DNA from: Shigella phage Sf24 | Sequence record: MF327008 | Direction: 5' to 3' (one strand) | Length of the DNA stretch: 64,000 bases | Shown: piece after piece, positions 9,232 through 63,314 of the stretch | Position numbering within the stretch: position 1 is the stretch's first letter | Layout: every line of letters starts with the position of its first letter | Notes under the pieces: model-generated | Database searches by the model: none | Told to the model about the DNA's origin: nothing | Seen by the model: the letters and a program-made list of their open reading frames with translations, nothing else | Translations under genes and position numbers: made by a program

Positions 9232-9396
9232 TTACTCTTCTTTTTCTTTAGATTCCTCTTTCTTCTTTTTAGGAATCTGTTCAGGACCTTTATTTACTAC
9301 AGCACCTGACGTTGTTCCAGTAGAGATATTTTCAGGATTACCACCTGAATCTCCAGCGACCATATCTTCTTTAATAAATTCTTTATATGTTTTCAT
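9232..9396 (-). CDS. small protein (54 aa, 61.1 position) with capsid-targeting-like N-terminus MKTYKEFIKE
   Basis: Hand-translated from ATG 9394-9396 (AGAGGT SD): MKTYKEFIKEDMVAGDSGGNPEN...KKKKEESKEKEE; stop 3 nt before gene 61 ATG. Confidence 0.5.
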   Translation of the reverse strand: MKTYKEFIKEDMVAGDSGGNPENISTGTTSGAVVNKGPEQIPKKKKEESKEKEE

Positions 9397-13904: not shown

Positions 13905-14747
13905 TTAATCAACTGCTATTGGATGAATAACATTAAACTTATGAAATGCTTCTGATTTTTCTTTACGTGAAACGCACATGCGAAGAACCTTTAATGGTTC
14001 GTCTTCTTCACCCAACGATTTTCGTTTTTCAATATTAGAAGTTTTCCAACGAGCTTGCTCTGGAAACTCTCTATTGATTTGCTCAAGCGCTCTATTATGT
14101 TTAGAATTACTACGAATTGAACTGCACCCGCCAGGAGCTTGTGCTTTTCCAGATACAACCAGATATTTGAACAAGGCCAAATGCGGATAACCTTGATTAA
14201 TTAAATTGAGAAATGCATACATATCTTCGCACAAATCAATTTTTCCATACCCAATTTGTTCTGTCGTAAGTTTTCCAAGGTCATACCATGTATTCGTGAA
14301 TCCATATGAATTTTCACGATAATTACCCCAAGATGAAGTAATTTTAAAAATTGGTAGGCGAGCATGACCATGATAATACCCGCAATCCATGGCATCCTCA
14401 ACGTATTGAATCAATTCATAGAACTGTTCACGGGTTAATTGATTAATTTTATCTACGCAGCGACGATCATCTTTCTTTCGCATTGAGCTCATACGAATAG
14501 TAGTATCATCGTCAATCATCCAGATTCGTTGACCTGCATACATATCAGTAATTGCTTTACGAGTACCGGCAATTCCGTTTACATCATCAGGAATAGTTAT
14601 AATTTTAGCTCTAGACCCATAGGCATCATAATAAGCTTTTTCTTCATGTTCACGCACTACAATATGGGGTTCATAATCAGTCGGAAACATATCAAGGGCA
14701 GAAACTGCCCCGACACGCTGATAACTTGGAATTACGAATTGAATCAT
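13905..14747 (-). CDS. putative glycosyltransferase at the beta-gt locus (not T4 beta-gt)
   Basis: 280 aa from ATG 14745-14747 (ATGA overlap with gene 42 stop, AAGGTGAG SD); RIWMIDDDTTI DxD-like motif; does not match T4 beta-gt as recalled. Confidence 0.6.
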   Translation of the reverse strand: MIQFVIPSYQRVGAVSALDMFPTDYEPHIVVREHEEKAYYDAYGSRAKIITIPDDVNGIAGTRKAITDMYAGQRIWMIDDDTTIRMSSMRKKDDRRCVDKINQLTREQFYELIQYVEDAMDCGYYHGHARLPIFKITSSWGNYRENSYGFTNTWYDLGKLTTEQIGYGKIDLCEDMYAFLNLINQGYPHLALFKYLVVSGKAQAPGGCSSIRSNSKHNRALEQINREFPEQARWKTSNIEKRKSLGEEDEPLKVLRMCVSRKEKSEAFHKFNVIHPIAVD

Positions 14748-15484
14748 TTCCACTCACCTTTATAGTCTTTTTTCACAATATGAGTTTCGCCAGTATTCCA
14801 CCAATGATCAACCAAGTAAAAATGACGAGAATATACATGAAGACTTCCGACATTCCATATAATAGAACCTGCTTTATACTGACGAGTTGAATCGCCTGCA
14901 TTCAAATCAGATACTAATTTATCTAATACGTATTTTTGCCATGCATAATCATTACGGAATCCGAAGACCACGTCATTTGAGCGCATGCTTACTACTGCAT
15001 TGACTTTCTTATCACGAATCAGGTACTGTACTGTATTAGTACACATGAAATCTGACATACCATCTTTATTGTAGTCAAATTGCATGGATGGACGAGTATA
15101 AATCATGATACCACGTCGAGAATCAGGATTTTGACCAAGTTCAGCTAAACACATATCATACTGGGCATAGTTATCTTCTGACCAAATAGCCCAACCATAA
15201 TTCGAGTTAATTTCGCCTTTAGAAGATGCTACTTGTTGCCAAATCTTCGGTGTTTCACCTGGAATATCTTTAACAAACAAACTCTTAGATTTATACCATT
15301 CAAGTTCGCGCTGAATGTATTCATCATTAAGAGCGCCAAAAATAAACGGTTCATCTGCTACAAATGATGCGCCAATAATTTCAATAGTTTTAACACCGGT
15401 TTTATCAACTACGAAATCTTTTTCCTTTAATGCAAGCCCCAAATGAAGACGGATTTCTCCAACTGTCATATAATCGTTAATCAT
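14744..15484 (-). CDS. 42: dCMP hydroxymethylase (gene 42)
   Basis: 246 aa; thymidylate-synthase-like; matches T4 gp42 as recalled. Confidence 0.93.
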   Translation of the reverse strand: MINDYMTVGEIRLHLGLALKEKDFVVDKTGVKTIEIIGASFVADEPFIFGALNDEYIQRELEWYKSKSLFVKDIPGETPKIWQQVASSKGEINSNYGWAIWSEDNYAQYDMCLAELGQNPDSRRGIMIYTRPSMQFDYNKDGMSDFMCTNTVQYLIRDKKVNAVVSMRSNDVVFGFRNDYAWQKYVLDKLVSDLNAGDSTRQYKAGSIIWNVGSLHVYSRHFYLVDHWWNTGETHIVKKDYKGEWK

Positions 15485-53191: not shown

Positions 53192-53665
53192 TTATTTGAA
53201 TGATTTGACGTACTGAATAGAGCCTTTGCTATTCACGAAAGCGATTTTACCATTTTTGTTATACATGGTAGCAGTACGCTGATAGCCATAAGTTTGCTTA
53301 CCAGATTGATAACCAACTAATGCAAAATTATCTTCACCCATTTTATTCTGTTTGGCGCGGATACGTTCATGACCGTGCGCCATAAGAACCTTAGCATCGC
53401 CAGTTGAAATTGATCTACGAGTTTTTTCATCTTCAACTGTATTAACAAAGTCGTCAAATGAATCAAATTTAGCGTGAGATTTATTATACAGTTTTCCATC
53501 TACTGCATAATTATATCCCTGTACATCCATCTCAACTTCTGTACCATCATCCAATACAGCAGTGATTTTTTGACCTTTTTTAAATTTCAAAAGATCAGTA
53601 AAAGATTCAGCAATAATTTGAGAATTAATAGCTGCTTCAGTGATAAATTCTTGATATGTTTTCAT
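53192..53665 (-). CDS. internal (injected) head protein with capsid targeting sequence
   Basis: N-terminus MKTYQEFITEA matches the CTS of T4 internal proteins as recalled. Confidence 0.75.
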   Translation of the reverse strand: MKTYQEFITEAAINSQIIAESFTDLLKFKKGQKITAVLDDGTEVEMDVQGYNYAVDGKLYNKSHAKFDSFDDFVNTVEDEKTRRSISTGDAKVLMAHGHERIRAKQNKMGEDNFALVGYQSGKQTYGYQRTATMYNKNGKIAFVNSKGSIQYVKSFK

Positions 53666-53674
53666 ATGTTTCCT

Positions 53675-54091
53675 TTAAATGTAAATATTTTTACCGTAAT
53701 ACTTATACCAGTGTGGTTTCATTAAAATTTTTTCATCAAGTCGTTGTTGACTCAATTTAATAGCTGATTTGCATGGATTATAATCATTTTTCCATTCTAC
53801 TGGAATATCGCTGATGTCAGGAACTTCAGTATCTTTTATACTGAACCCTCGTTTTAAGCATTCCGTTATAATGTCTAATTGACGCTTTCGCAAAAATTCT
53901 AACTTATCGTAAAAGAACGTAACATGACCAGAACCTAAAATAAACTCGGAAGATATTTTAAAATCTTTAACGCGCTTACCGTTTGCCACATGCTTACGAA
54001 CTATACCAAAAACACGCGGCAATTCACGGTATTCTGCGATTAAATGTTGATCAGCAAGTTCAGATACTAAAGTCAAATTAATACGAGTCAT
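53675..54091 (-). CDS. denV: endonuclease V (pyrimidine dimer glycosylase)
   Basis: 138 aa; [17 protein letters not shown]... matches T4 DenV as recalled. Confidence 0.92.
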
Positions 54092-54150: not shown

Positions 54151-54681
<531 letters not shown>

Positions 54682-58835: not shown

Positions 58836-59186
58836 TTAATATTCTTTTAAAGCATCAATTTGTTCACGGCGTTTACGCCATAAATCAATTGCTTCATAAG
58901 CAGATTCAGCATTTCGAATTAGCCGACATTTATGTAAAGACTTATGATTTTGATATTGTGTAGATAACGGAATTTTATCTAAAAGGTCTTTACGTTCAAA
59001 ATATTCGTAACCATCTAAACCAAATGAACGATTTTTGAGAAATTGCCAATGACCAAATTCGTTTTCGACATAAACATAATCTGCATGCTGATAAAGCAAA
59101 TTAATTACACGTTCAGAAATAACAGTATCATTATGATTAAAATAGAATGTTAAATCATGAACTACTAAGTAAACATTGCCTTTCAT
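58836..59186 (-). CDS. hypothetical protein (116 aa) immediately downstream of tRNA-Arg
   Basis: Track ORF 58836-59234 trimmed to ATG 59184-86 (GAGGAAAAT SD) because the longer form overlaps tRNA-Arg. Confidence 0.5.
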   Translation of the reverse strand: MKGNVYLVVHDLTFYFNHNDTVISERVINLLYQHADYVYVENEFGHWQFLKNRSFGLDGYEYFERKDLLDKIPLSTQYQNHKSLHKCRLIRNAESAYEAIDLWRKRREQIDALKEY

Positions 59187-59204
59187 ATTTTCCTCACTTA
59201 TAAT

Positions 59205-59281
<77 letters not shown>

Positions 59282-59285
59282 TATT

Positions 59286-59360
59286 TGGCGGACATGCATG
59301 GATTCGAACCATGGACCAATTGATTAACAGTCAACTGCTCTACCATTGAGCTACACATCC
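59286..59360 (-). tRNA. tRNA-Asn (anticodon GUU)
   Basis: Hand-folded: anticodon loop CTGTTAA, T-arm CATGG-TTCGAAT-CCATG, CCA encoded. Confidence 0.75.
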
Positions 59361-59364
59361 AAAT

Positions 59365-59451
59365 TGGTGGGGAGTGATGGAGTCGAACCACCCGAGTCGC
59401 AATGACAATGAATTTACAGTCCACACCGCTACCTCTACGGGATAACTCCCC
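59365..59451 (-). tRNA. tRNA-Tyr (anticodon GUA), long variable arm
   Basis: Hand-folded 87 nt: acceptor GGGGAGT/ACTCCCC, anticodon loop CTGTAAA, T-loop TTCGACT, CCA encoded. Confidence 0.75.
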
Positions 59452-59463
59452 TAATTCATAATT

Positions 59464-59538
59464 TGGTGGCCCTGGGTGGAATTGAACCACCATCTGGCGA
59501 TTATGAGTCGCTTGCTTGAACCTTCCAGCTACAGGGCC
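59464..59538 (-). tRNA. tRNA with CAU anticodon (Ile2-type or Met)
   Basis: Hand-folded: acceptor GGCCCTG/CAGGGCC, anticodon loop CTCATAA, T-loop TTCAATT, CCA encoded. Confidence 0.75.
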
Positions 59539-59539
59539 T

Positions 59540-59615
59540 TGGTGCTGATTGACGGAATCGAACCGCCGACCTTCTCATTACAAGTGAGTTGCTCTACCTA
59601 CTGAGCTAAATCAGC
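59540..59615 (-). tRNA. tRNA-Thr (anticodon UGU)
   Basis: Hand-folded: acceptor GCTGATT/AATCAGC, D-arm GCTC..GAGC, anticodon loop CTTGTAA, T-loop TTCGATT. Confidence 0.8.
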
Positions 59616-59620
59616 AAAAC

Positions 59621-59710
59621 TGGCGGAGGCGATAGGATTTGAACCTATGAGTCGCCGGAGCGACTGCCGGTTTTCAAGACCGGTGCATTAAACCACTCTG
59701 CCACGCCTCC
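59621..59710 (-). tRNA. tRNA-Ser (anticodon UGA), long variable arm
   Basis: Hand-folded 90 nt: acceptor GGAGGCG/CGCCTCC, anticodon stem CCGGT/ACCGG with loop CTTGAAA, T-loop TTCAAAT. Confidence 0.8.
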
Positions 59711-59712
59711 AG

Positions 59713-59786
59713 TCTCCATACAAGGATTTGAACCTTGGACCTCCTGATCCCAAATCAGGCGCTCTACCAAACTGAGCTACACGGAG
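59713..59786 (-). tRNA. tRNA-Pro (anticodon UGG)
   Basis: Hand-folded: anticodon stem CCTGA/TCAGG with loop TTTGGGA, T-arm CAAGG-TTCAAAT-CCTTG; CCA not encoded. Confidence 0.8.
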
Positions 59787-59796
59787 TAAATTAAAT

Positions 59797-59870
<74 letters not shown>

Positions 59871-59875
59871 AAATT

Positions 59876-59962
59876 TGGTGCGAGAAGTGGGACTCGAACC
59901 CACAAGGAAATCATTCCGCAGCATTTTAAGTGCTGTGCCTTTACCAATTTGACCATTCTCGC
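59876..59962 (-). tRNA. tRNA-Leu (anticodon UAA), long variable arm
   Basis: Hand-folded 87 nt: acceptor GCGAGAA/TTCTCGC, anticodon stem CAGCA/TGCTG with loop CTTAAAA, T-loop TTCGAGT. Confidence 0.8.
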
Positions 59963-59963
59963 G

Positions 59964-60036
59964 CTGGGAATAAAGGACTCGAACCTTTGCATCCTGGAAT
60001 CAAAATCCAGTGCCTTACCAACTTGGCTAATTCCCA
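59964..60036 (-). tRNA. tRNA-Gln (anticodon UUG)
   Basis: Hand-folded: acceptor TGGGAAT/ATTCCCA, anticodon stem CTGGA/TCCAG with loop TTTTGAT, T-loop TTCGAGT; CCA not encoded. Confidence 0.8.
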
Positions 60037-60122
60037 ATTATTAACAAAGGCTCTCAAGCAAGAACCCTTGATGATAGAGGGTATTAATCAGTGCGGTATG
60101 AGTTAATAATAACAAATAATTC

Positions 60123-60638
60123 TTAAAGCAAATTAAACATTTTAACGGTCGGCAAAACAATTTCTTCTTCTATATAAGAGTATTTAACACTCTCAACTAC
60201 ACGCAAGAAATCATAGTCATAATATTCAGAAGCATGACCAAGAATATCAATAAGGCCTTCAAATATCTTATTACCATTCACAAAGAATAAGTCAAATACA
60301 CGTTCTTCATCTTCTTCGGATTTATTACCAAGGTCAACTTCTATATCAAAGACCTTTTTAATGAATTCTGGATAAAGTTGTTCTGAGAACAGTCCTTCAA
60401 CCAAGTATTCATAAATAAAAAGCGATTGCTCGCTGAACAAGCCATTACCACAATAACGTTCAGCTTTAGTACTAGAATGTCTGCTTTTAAACTTCTTTAA
60501 AAGATATTGGAACTGTAAGATTTCATGCTCTTCTACGCCAAACAGTGTTTTAGTTTTATAGTTGTCACCATCATTTTCCCAGGTAGTGACATCAATTACG
60601 TAACCCTGCGGAATTGTAGTACCTAAACAAATATTCAT
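60123..60638 (-). CDS. hypothetical protein (171 aa)
   Basis: Track ORF begins at GTG 60647; first ATG 60636-38 with GGTGAAA SD. Confidence 0.55.
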   Translation of the reverse strand: MNICLGTTIPQGYVIDVTTWENDGDNYKTKTLFGVEEHEILQFQYLLKKFKSRHSSTKAERYCGNGLFSEQSLFIYEYLVEGLFSEQLYPEFIKKVFDIEVDLGNKSEEDEERVFDLFFVNGNKIFEGLIDILGHASEYYDYDFLRVVESVKYSYIEEEIVLPTVKMFNLL

Positions 60639-60640
60639 TT

Positions 60641-60931
60641 TCACCACGCTGCATTAATATAAGTATATTTAATACATTCAAGACTTAAAGGATTCTTGAA
60701 AATATCATATTCAAGAGGACCTTTTTCTGTTTCAATAAAGAAATCAAAATTTACTGTATTAAATTTACGATCTTCCTTCACTAATTTAACCTGAGAAGAT
60801 GAACGGTCAATGTAAACCTTTTCAACTTCAAAACATGTTAAAATGCCATAATCATCAATCAAGGCTTTAGCTGCTTCTTGATCATATTTATATCCATTTT
60901 CAATGGACGATACTTTAGCATAAAGAATCAT
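60641..60931 (-). CDS. hypothetical protein (96 aa)
   Basis: Track ORF. Confidence 0.5.
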   Translation of the reverse strand: MILYAKVSSIENGYKYDQEAAKALIDDYGILTCFEVEKVYIDRSSSQVKLVKEDRKFNTVNFDFFIETEKGPLEYDIFKNPLSLECIKYTYINAAW

Positions 60932-60933
60932 TA

Positions 60934-61314
60934 TTACCCTTCATCAACAATAGTATGAGTGTGGGCATTTACAATTTGCCACCAATCAAAGCGATTAGAA
61001 CCATACATCGGTTTGTTTTCATTTTCTTTGATAATATCACGAAGTTCATCTTCGGTAGCGGCTTTCGCGATTAAATCAGCATATCCACCGCGAGGATAAT
61101 AATTATCACCTGCAAAAAGTAAAAAGTTCGGTTTAATGTTATTGAACTCTTCAAGAGTAATAACCTTTCCTGACGGTTGAACAATCTCTACATATTTATA
61201 TCCCAATTTTTGAGCAGCATCTACTGCTTCAAGCAAAGTATCATGAGCCCATCCAATTTGACAACCTGGCTTTTCAGATGGATTAGCCTGATAATCCGCA
61301 TACACTTTGTACAT
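60934..61314 (-). CDS. hypothetical protein (126 aa)
   Basis: Track ORF 60934-61353 trimmed to ATG 61312-14 (AAAGGTG SD). Confidence 0.55.
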   Translation of the reverse strand: MYKVYADYQANPSEKPGCQIGWAHDTLLEAVDAAQKLGYKYVEIVQPSGKVITLEEFNNIKPNFLLFAGDNYYPRGGYADLIAKAATEDELRDIIKENENKPMYGSNRFDWWQIVNAHTHTIVDEG

Positions 61315-61315
61315 T

Positions 61316-61501
61316 CTATTCACCTTTAGAAATTTTATCCATAACGATAGCAATTAAACCAATTAAAAATGCTACTACAAGTGAAAATACATTTTCTGCT
61401 GTAGTTAATAATCCGCATATAAATCCAACAAACATTGAAAAACTAAAAGCGGAAGCAGAAATTGCAATAGCAACATTTCGAATTAATTCACAACGTTTCA
61501 T
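61316..61501 (-). CDS. hypothetical membrane peptide (61 aa)
   Basis: Track ORF, two TM segments; early promoter upstream. Confidence 0.45.
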   Translation of the reverse strand: MKRCELIRNVAIAISASAFSFSMFVGFICGLLTTAENVFSLVVAFLIGLIAIVMDKISKGE

Positions 61502-61529
61502 TTTATTCTCCTCAGTAGTTGATAGGGTA

Positions 61530-61560
61530 ATAGTATCACTACTAAAACCCCCGTGTAAAC
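61530..61560 (-). promoter_or_regulatory. early promoter (19-nt spacer)
   Basis: GTTTACA-N19-TACTAT. Confidence 0.5.
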
Positions 61561-61572
61561 AACTTTGTGAAA

Positions 61573-61830
61573 TTATTTTAAATCTTCTAATCGTTTCTTC
61601 ATCTTAGAACCATTTTTAGCGATTTCTCCTGCGTCAGAGCATAATGCTAAAAGTGCTTTAACTTTAGTTTGGTCTCCTTTAAAAGACGAAGGATCGACTG
61701 CAGCAGCAAGTTCTTTAATACGAGAGAAAAGACGCTCAGCTTCGGCTAAAGCCATTCCAAGCTTTACTTCCATACCATGAGAAGATTCAGTGATAATAGT
61801 TTCTGTAGCAAACTCTTTATAAGTTTTCAT
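61573..61830 (-). CDS. internal (injected) protein at the ipI locus with capsid targeting sequence
   Basis: 85 aa, N-terminus MKTYKEFATE (CTS-like); position between tRNA cluster and 57B; early promoter upstream. Confidence 0.7.
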   Translation of the reverse strand: MKTYKEFATETIITESSHGMEVKLGMALAEAERLFSRIKELAAAVDPSSFKGDQTKVKALLALCSDAGEIAKNGSKMKKRLEDLK

Positions 61831-61860
61831 TTTATTTTTCCTAATTAATTTTGATGAGGT

Positions 61861-61890
61861 AATAGTATCACTACCTCATCAGTGTGTAAA
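61861..61890 (-). promoter_or_regulatory. early promoter with -10 inside a 10-bp perfect inverted repeat
   Basis: GTTTACA-N18-TACTAT; TGATGAGGTA...TACCTCATCA brackets the -10. Confidence 0.65.
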
Positions 61891-61903
61891 CAACTTTGTG
61901 AAA

Positions 61904-62600
<697 letters not shown>

Positions 62601-62601
<1 letters not shown>

Positions 62602-63314
62602 TATAGTACCTTTAGTGTATTTTTAATTTTAGAAAAAAGTTCTTCAAGAGAACCATCGTTTGTAATTACTAAATCGCCATCACGAATTGGCAATCCAGCT
62701 TCTGTAATATGTGTATCATTGGATTTTTGACCAGGACGAACTACATGAATTACTGTAGCACCCATCGCCCTAGCCGCATCCATTTCATGATCTTGACGAG
62801 TATCAGGAACGATATAATAATCATAACCTGAGTTAAATTTATCAAGATAATCTAAAGCAAATAATTTTACCCAGTACATGCGGTCGAAGTTATTAACAAT
62901 CAAATCCGTACCTAGGGCTTGCATCAGACGACGGACTGACCATTGATCTTCAATATTATTTATAACGTCAGCAATCTTGTTAAATGCTACGAAATTAACT
63001 GCGTCATCAAAAACAAACACACCTTTAATTGGGCTTTTACTATTAAGATAGCAAAATGCTTGTTCCATAATCGTAATTACTTCTAATTTAGTCAGATTTA
63101 AATTAGTTTCACGATCATAGTCAATTCCTTCAAACTCTTTACGAGTTAAACAAGGATAGTCAGTGTTTGCTGCAAATACACCCCATGCATAAGCCAATGC
63201 ATCCTTAATAGGACCAGCAAGTTGATATTTAACTGCAGAATAATTATTCATAATAAAATCTGCAGTAGTATCTTTTCCACTACGCTTTACACCACTTAAA
63301 AAGATTAGTTTCAT
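62601..63314 (-). CDS. 1: deoxynucleoside monophosphate kinase (gene 1)
   Basis: 237 aa; P-loop GVKRSGKDT. Confidence 0.9.

Follow-up and report, generated by a model that had tools for sequence, protein, structure and literature searches.

What occupies the ipI slot of Shigella phage Sf24, and what might its product do for the phage? We examined a 64,000-nt stretch of DNA from this phage (sequence record MF327008; hereafter the window). A preliminary description, made from the sequence alone, had reported an 85-aa CTS-bearing protein distinct from T4 IPI in the polymorphic ipI slot, and had regarded it as a candidate injected anti-restriction protein with possibly different target specificity. 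Our analysis bore out the CTS-bearing protein, its place in the polymorphic slot and its distinctness from T4 IPI, with which it aligned over the leader alone. We then weighed its possible function against published restriction tests and transposon data.

Identity and genomic setting of the gene

The coding sequence (61573..61830, minus strand) was defined by the ORF list, by PHROG 3499 and by identity to RB51 Ip5. It starts with ATG and encodes 85 aa plus a stop codon, beginning MKTYKEFATE (MKTYKEFATETIITESSHGMEV...), and its full translation is MKTYKEFATETIITESSHGMEVKLGMALAEAERLFSRIKELAAAVDPSSFKGDQTKVKALLALCSDAGEIAKNGSKMKKRLEDLK. The ORF list contained no overlapping ORF of at least 30 aa on the opposite, plus strand, and a Shine-Dalgarno sequence AGGA, read directly from the sequence (61839..61842, minus strand), lies 8 nt 5′ of the ATG.

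The product is certainly Ip5, a T-even internal protein that has already been named. It was 100% identical at the amino acid level to RB51 Ip5 and to Sf25 gp268, so that the idea of a new allele did not hold, and it matched PHROG 3499 ("internal head protein") from end to end (positions 1-85 of 85, E = 3.7e-50). The same gene is annotated as Ip5 in RB51, T2, PP01, ime09 and wV7, and the RB51 record carries the remark "similar to Ip5 from T6, T2, RB15 and RB70 and RB69ORF127c". Over the 1.1 kb around ip5, identity was approximately 99.9% with Shigella phage Sf25 and 96.5-98% with the remaining Tequatrovirus genomes listed. The protein was 95-96% identical to the Ip5 of T2 and Bas37, and relative to T2, e11/2 and Bas37 it differed only in the leader, at positions 4, 10 and 12, apart from one Ala deletion in T2. 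By tblastn, the protein was present in 495 GenBank phage records, about 267 (Tequatrovirus-type) reaching at least 80% identity and about 228 lying near 51%; the records sampled from the latter group were Mosigvirus-type phages, in which the gene occupies the second IP locus, beside lysozyme e. Ip5 is among the commonest internal-protein alleles, and a literature search under the name "Ip5" found nothing relevant. The preliminary description had staked its reading on the protein not being identical to a characterised allele of known specificity; the identity proved to be with a named allele, though not with one of established specificity. Nor is the feature new at the sequence level: gene and name, the variability of the locus and the promoter/stem-loop repeats have all been described before.

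Upstream of ip5, on the same strand, come 57B, 57A and gene 1. The immediate neighbour 57B (61904..62359, minus strand) is the Acb1 anti-CBASS nuclease (Pfam PF23474 Acb1, 2.6e-60); its RefSeq and PHROG label is "RNA ligase" despite this match. The downstream neighbour is the small membrane protein gene trna.4 (61316..61501, minus strand; PHROG 1692, 6e-35), annotated in T4, RB51 and Sf25, and it is followed by trna.3, trna.2, an extra 174-aa ORF and 10 tRNA genes (59205-60036). The slot had been placed between the tRNA cluster and 57B, which is correct as to position, although about 1.3 kb of other genes intervenes. The tRNA cluster itself (59205..60036, minus strand) comprises ten genes, including Asn and Tyr, compared with eight in T4, and the homing endonuclease segB is absent from among them. 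The 174-aa ORF (60123..60647, minus strand; PHROG 2290, unknown function) lies between the tRNAs and trna.2, where T4 has no counterpart.

The variable slot and the second IP locus

Two regions mark the IP loci, namely 57B-trna.4 and e/denV, and ip5 lies in the first of them. Among 35 IMG/VR loci anchored on 57B, this slot contained 0-4 CTS-bearing ORFs belonging to at least 17 sequence families, with Ip5-type genes in two of the loci, and trna.4 formed the conserved downstream boundary in 30 of 35 related loci. In other phages, the promoter/stem-loop cassette described below brackets ipI, ip6 and ip7 as well. Diversity at the IP locus comes from cassette exchange, not from point mutation.

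At the second IP locus of the window, Ip4 (53192..53665, minus strand; 157 aa, PHROG 3155) lies downstream of denV (53675..54091) and shares 99.4% identity with the Ip4/ipIV annotated in ime09 and PP01. According to the ORF list, no ORF of 50 aa or more was present between e (54151..54645) and denV, where T4 has ipIII and ipII, and a pattern scan of this locus found no CTS-bearing ORF besides Ip4. Ip4 and Ip5 were thus the internal proteins with a CTS detected in the window. Just upstream of e are two TATAAATA late-promoter motifs (54659-54666 and 54672-54679, minus strand), 13 nt apart. Far from the IP loci, a 54-aa ORF (9232..9396, minus strand), the positional counterpart of T4 gene 61.1, starts with the capsid-targeting-like MKTYKEFIKE. 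It belongs to PHROG 1823 (unknown function), occurs in 1227 phage records, and in distant phages the match begins at residue 10. This ORF may encode a packaged peptide that has so far escaped notice, or its leader motif may be coincidental.

A promoter and inverted-repeat cassette

A promoter scan placed a sigma-70-type early promoter upstream of ip5, with the -35 element TTTACA (61885-61890) and an upstream element TTTCACAAAGTTG (together 61885..61903, minus strand), a 17-nt spacer, and the -10 element TACTAT (61862..61867, minus strand) with TG upstream of it. A repeat search detected a perfect 10-bp inverted repeat with a 10-nt loop (61852..61881, minus strand; arms 61852-61861 and 61872-61881, 100% complementary), and the -10 element falls in the loop, in agreement with the preliminary description. 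The stem reads TGATGAGGTA/TACCTCATCA, followed by AAAAUUAAUU. The predicted fold of the 80-nt intergenic RNA reached -20.5 kcal/mol (z = -4.9), and none of 200 shuffled sequences was equally stable; the hairpin is not due to chance.

Almost base for base, nearly the same 85-bp cassette is found upstream of T4 ipI, and the inverted repeat is identical in T4 and carries one G-U change in T2. Additional copies lie between ip5 and ip6, ip5 and ip7, ip6 and trna.4, and ip7 and trna.4 in e11/2 and T2. Across ten cassette copies, the block GTGATACTAT around the -10 element was invariant, 78% of stem cells were paired and two pairs showed compensatory changes, an alternative version of the arms with both changes occurring in other copies; in four of the ten, the stem was degraded or shifted. 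In the window, a second copy of the promoter cassette (61502..61572, minus strand; matching TTTACA-18-TACTAT) drives trna.4 and, with the first copy, brackets ip5 between direct repeats. The direct repeats shared by the two cassettes, spaced 331-332 nt apart, are D1 (36 nt, 97% identity) and D2 (24 nt, 92%).

Transcription from the ip5 promoter should start near 61855, within the distal arm, and the whole hairpin would therefore form only in read-through transcripts from upstream. Such read-through might come from a TATAAATA late-promoter motif at 62957-62964. No terminator was called at the hairpin in the scan, and there is no U-tract after the stem, so that it is no canonical terminator. When positions 59000-62700 were searched against Rfam, only tRNAs were detected, and the hairpin matched no described RNA family. 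Arbiol et al. 2010 credit Repoila et al. 1994 with the observation of "PeSL-like" sequences at either IP locus and describe the versions found there as weaker and AT-rich; such sequences were proposed to mediate IP shuffling (PMC2839356). With up to 3 mismatches allowed, the 19-mer TTTCACAAAGTTGTTTACA, represented at ip5 by the -35 and upstream element, has 8 occurrences in the window where 0.07 would be expected, all of them on the minus strand (positions 1686, 3022, 16582, 30882, 43094, 58356, 61554 and 61885), and looks like a generic extended early-promoter consensus of the phage.

Leader and predicted processing

In T4 internal proteins, the first ~10 residues target the prohead core, with positions 4 and 7 being critical, and gp21 removes the leader at (L/I)-x-E (PMC9026906). 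The predicted capsid-targeting propeptide of Ip5, MKTYKEFATETIITE (codons 1-15; 61786..61830, minus strand), shows both features: MKTYKEF agrees with the CTS pattern MKT(Y/F)xEF, with aromatics at positions 4 and 7 (Y4, F7), and I13-T14-E15|S16 provides the predicted prohead-protease site, I-T-E|S. E15 was invariant in all nine aligned family members, Mosigvirus having L-N-E|A or L-S-E|A at this point, and the T4 IPI counterpart of the site reads ...ITE|A. A natural variant has lost five leader residues and retains a 10-aa leader ending in MTE directly before SSHGMEV, which supports S16 as the mature N-terminus.

By BLASTP, Ip5 residues 1-22 and IPI residues 1-26 were the only parts of the two proteins that aligned (Ip5, MKTYKEFATET----IITESSHGMEV; IPI, MKTFKEFTSTTTPVSTITEATLTSEV). 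The Ip5 leader likewise aligned with the leaders of IPII, IPIII, Ip4, Ip6 and Ip7, as with that of IPI, and similarity between the mature 70 residues and these six proteins was undetectable; the PHROG families differ as well. Ip5 is probably packed in the capsid, processed and injected with the DNA. Its packaging is read from the leader alone, since our search of the accessible literature found no virion proteomics or ejection report on Ip5.

The mature domain

The predicted mature protein, Ip5* (61576..61785, minus strand), has 70 aa, a mass of 7.5 kDa, a pI of 9.2 and a net charge of only about +3. AlphaFold2, run on a 9-sequence alignment, predicted an all-helical structure with a mean pLDDT of 84.5. 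Residues 1-20 were floppy, with low confidence in the propeptide (pLDDT 55-58), and residues 21-85 reached pLDDT 90-96; helices spanned residues 17-44, 54-63 and 67-83. Foldseek comparison of this model with the PDB found nothing (E > 7), generic helices at most, and a BFVD fold comparison returned only another Ip5. The predicted fold permits no functional inference for Ip5.

Sequence searches were similarly confined. A full HMMER scan of the mature part against 1.84 billion representative proteins detected two clusters only, Tequatrovirus and Mosigvirus, so no relatives were found outside Tevenvirinae, and a word-indexed protein search gave only five close clusters. A Pfam scan of Ip5 yielded nothing above threshold, and a PDB sequence search yielded no match, the best hit (E = 0.56) being a designed protein. 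The dN/dS of ip5 was 0.05-0.11 within Tequatrovirus and approximately 0.3 between Tequatrovirus and Mosigvirus. The gene is real, intact and constrained by purifying selection.

Published restriction tests

Silas et al. 2025 reported that Ip1, Ip2 and Ip3 each inhibit a GmrSD of their own without cross-protection, that all three matched enzymes restrict T2 and T6, and that ip4-10 showed no reproducible inhibition of further GmrSD variants (PMC12373910). In He et al. 2015, T2 withstood CT596 GmrSD only when IPI was supplied (PMC4437046 Table 3), and both T2 and T6 were sensitive to the UTI89 enzyme (PMC4437046). Four enzymes in all act against T2, the GmrSD of CT596, ECOR21 and ECOR17 together with the UTI89 enzyme (PMC12373910, PMC4437046), and because T2 carries an Ip5 whose mature part is essentially identical, Ip5 does not neutralise these enzymes. 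Protection against GmrSD-type enzymes, which had been suggested as a check on the function of the window protein, has for the most part been put to the test in published work, with negative outcomes both for Ip5-positive T2 against four GmrSD and for the ip4-10 panel (PMC12373910, PMC4437046).

Two candidate identities were rejected on this basis and on the annotation of phage Bas37. An IPI-like inhibitor of CT596 GmrSD was discarded, as the Ip5-carrying T2 is sensitive. A new McrBC inhibitor, the Ip6-type Bas37_0260, has been described "at the ipI locus" of Bas37 (bioRxiv 10.1101/2025.11.20.689424). In the Bas37 genome (KarlGJung, MZ501089), bas37_0260 translates to a 77-aa Ip6-type protein, and Ip5 is the adjacent bas37_0261; Ip5 is therefore not the McrBC inhibitor. 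That inhibitor, needed by Bas37 on K-12, is absent from the window phage. Among more than 30 known internal-protein variants, the literature that we searched gives identified targets for only Ip1, Ip2, Ip3 and an Ip6-type protein.

Between uvsX and gene 42, the window encodes a beta-glucosyl-HMC-alpha-glucosyltransferase of the T2/T6/Bas37 type (13905..14753, minus strand; PHROG 842). Since this enzyme type is shared, the DNA modification of the window phage should resemble that of Bas37, and it is probably the T2/T6-type gentiobiosyl modification, not the T4 beta-gt type.

A strain-specific requirement in Bas37

The mature part of bas37_0261 is 100% identical to that of the window protein, and we examined its behaviour in Extended Data Table 7 of the HIDEN-SEQ preprint, where log2FC is given relative to K-12 (bioRxiv 10.1101/2025.11.20.689424). 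On K-12, the reference, the gene is fully dispensable, with 18 of 18 TA sites hit (bioRxiv 10.1101/2025.11.20.689424). On CFT073 its log2FC was -2.09 (about 4-fold depletion, adjusted p < 1e-5), and on CFE299, CFE303, CFE331 and CFE336 the values were -0.01, -0.01, -0.13 and +0.26, respectively. Among five UPEC isolates, Ip5 disruption was thus costly only on uropathogenic CFT073 and neutral on the other four. A single pooled transposon experiment, covering 17 TA sites, underlies the CFT073 effect, and the authors made no bas37_0261 deletion. Among the rows listed for CFT073, 5 of 108 genes were significant. The downstream genes were not depleted on this strain (bas37_0260, +5.04; bas37_0259, +0.06), so downstream polarity cannot explain the effect; the upstream 57B was depleted (log2FC -1.56), and weakly so on CFE303 and CFE331. 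The CFT073-specific requirement went unremarked by the preprint authors and is the one useful lead from these data.

We then inspected the immigration-control region of CFT073, which lacks mcrBC and mrr and in which a type I R-M system has a GmrSD-family locus on either side (L045, E. coli CFT073 NC_004431, 32680-34773 and 41397-43049). One locus (C_RS25630) encodes an intact GmrSD_N+GmrSD_C protein of 550 aa (WP_001304525.1) next to hsdR (hsdRMS); the second (C_RS30460/C_RS30465) appears in the reference assembly as two pieces, a DUF262 pseudogene and a GmrSD_C+DUF5655 ORF. He et al. listed c5421 as a CFT073 GmrSD homologue (PMC4437046). To name these genes as candidate Ip5 targets is a reasonable guess, the link being purely circumstantial. 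We consider it conceivable, but on balance doubtful, that Ip5 is an injected inhibitor of a defence resident in CFT073, for which a GmrSD-family gene (WP_001304525.1 or its split neighbour) would be the most plausible choice.

Interpretation and competing explanations

Our preferred reading, to which we assign a probability of roughly 60%, is that ip5 is an interchangeable T-even internal-protein cassette and that Ip5 is an injected, strain-specific anti-defence protein. If Ip5 follows the rules established for its T4 counterparts, residues 1-15 would direct the precursor to the prohead core, and the gp21 prohead protease would cut after Glu15, at I-T-E|S. The 70-residue, mildly basic, helical Ip5* would then be packaged alongside the DNA and, on infection, be ejected into the cell, where it would neutralise a host defence of some strains only, ahead of any phage gene expression. 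Its most plausible mode would be the binding of a nuclease that attacks sugar-modified hmC DNA, in the manner of IPI, IPII, IPIII and the Ip6-type. The target would be none of the GmrSD enzymes of CT596, ECOR21 and ECOR17, nor the UTI89 enzyme, nor McrBC, and would be present in CFT073. An anti-defence function is likely from the precedent of the class and the strain-specific phenotype, and the fact that in the Bas37 data Ip5 disruption is costly on CFT073 only keeps such a role plausible. The earlier proposal is thus supported in part. Several points weigh against our reading: the ip4-10 panel was negative, Ip5-carrying T2 is sensitive to four GmrSD enzymes, the near-invariant mature sequence is unlike a fast arms race by point mutation, and the CFT073 effect, drawn from one pooled experiment, is modest and accompanied by the depletion of 57B (-1.56), to which polarity or a regional effect may contribute.

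The same near-invariance in Tequatrovirus would suit a generic head cargo that condenses DNA, neutralises charge or fills the core and has no specific host target, as would the basic mature part (pI 9.2), the dispensability on K-12, the neutrality on four of five clinical isolates and the contribution of T4 IPIII to head morphogenesis (PMC9026906). We regard this as unlikely, since a net charge of about +3 is small, a structural role should be independent of the host and yet the defect appears on CFT073 only, and all Ips of known function are anti-restriction factors; a slot that holds 0-4 unrelated proteins from at least 17 families, and sometimes none, is likewise unexpected for a needed structural function. 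Alternatively, Ip5 could be injected and act on some other early defence or a host factor of CFT073-like strains, not on a modification-dependent nuclease. The uniformly negative GmrSD and McrBC tests with Ip5 or Ip5-carrying phages, an all-helical predicted fold that matches no known inhibitor, and the neighbouring Acb1, which shows that the region is not confined to anti-restriction functions, would all accord with this. We nevertheless hold the odds of such a target to be low: all four characterised proteins of the class target Type IV enzymes, the GmrSD tests cover a limited set of a very diverse family, and CFT073 does carry GmrSD-family genes.

The CFT073 signal itself might be an artefact of polarity, of a regional effect shared with 57B or of noise, with Ip5 having no measurable function in the hosts tested. 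The single pooled experiment with 17 TA sites, the depletion of the adjoining 57B (-1.56) and the silence of the preprint authors on the effect fit this explanation, which we judge quite improbable given the adjusted p below 1e-5 with 5 of 108 genes significant among the rows listed, the behaviour of bas37_0260 (+5.04) and bas37_0259 (+0.06), the lack of effect of the same library on four other strains, and strong purifying selection across 495 genomes, which argues for function. That Ip5 is a functional analogue of IPI* directed against the same CT596-type GmrSD is hardly credible; locus, promoter cassette and leader type are all the same, but sequence similarity ends with the leader, and T2, whose Ip5 has the same mature part apart from one Ala deletion, needs a supply of IPI to withstand CT596 GmrSD (PMC4437046 Table 3; PMC12373910).

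If Ip5 does inhibit a GmrSD-family enzyme of CFT073, it would form a further internal-protein/Type IV restriction pair, with an all-helical fold unrelated to IPI*, and might be part of the reason why CFT073 served as a screening host for Bas37 and not for T4, which is apparently unable to infect it. A genuine CFT073-specific requirement would offer a direct route to the target of Ip5. It would also provide a marker predicting T-even growth on uropathogenic strains like CFT073, a matter of relevance to the choice of therapeutic phages.

Comparison with known systems

T4 IPI, whose processed form IPI* is an injected inhibitor of E. coli CT596 GmrSD, shares with Ip5 its genomic slot, a nearly identical promoter/stem-loop cassette, the MKT(Y/F)KEF leader and the I-T-E cleavage motif. 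The two differ in PHROG (4363 for IPI, 3499 for Ip5), and their mature sequences are unrelated. Ip5 lacks mature-domain homology to T4 IPI*, and the restriction of Ip5-positive T2 by CT596 GmrSD also speaks against placing it in the IPI* family. IPI* is said (reportedly by Rifat et al. 2008) to have a small alpha/beta fold, whereas Ip5 is predicted to be all-helical.

Bas37_0260, the 77-aa Ip6-type McrBC inhibitor, is also CTS-bearing and shares slot and cassette architecture with Ip5, beside which it sits in Bas37 and e11/2; the window phage lacks it. The likeness between the two proteins is limited to 11 leader residues, and their screen phenotypes are opposite, Bas37_0260 being needed on K-12 (McrBC+) and unneeded on clinical isolates.

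The cassettes resemble the PeSL cassettes of T4-like phages, in which a repeated early promoter and stem-loop flank small non-essential ORFs in the hyperplastic region, as here. A strong sigma-70-like early promoter with a stem-loop is repeated on either side of the variable ORF in the window, and the GC-rich (GGGG...CCCC) terminator stem of PeSL is lacking. The window stem differs further in being AT-rich, without a polyG/polyC tract or a U-tract, and in enclosing the -10 element rather than lying beside the promoter.

The closest counterparts are the Ip5 proteins of the T-even phages themselves (RB51 ACP31062, T2 BBC14757, RB70 Q38378; PHROG 3499), which are the same protein at the same locus with the same flanking genes. 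The content of the slot varies, with Ip5 alone in the window phage, Ip5 and Ip7 in T2, and Ip5 and Ip6 in e11/2 and Bas37. The Ip5-like protein of Mosigvirus, RB69ORF127c (93 aa), is a true homologue in the same PHROG, 51-54% identical across the whole mature domain, with a conserved L-x-E|A site corresponding to the cleavage motif of Ip5. Its gene is located between e and denV, with an overlap of 4 nt with e, its product has an 8-residue C-terminal extension, and the DNA of these phages carries arabinosyl-hmC, not glucosyl-hmC (PMC6024577).
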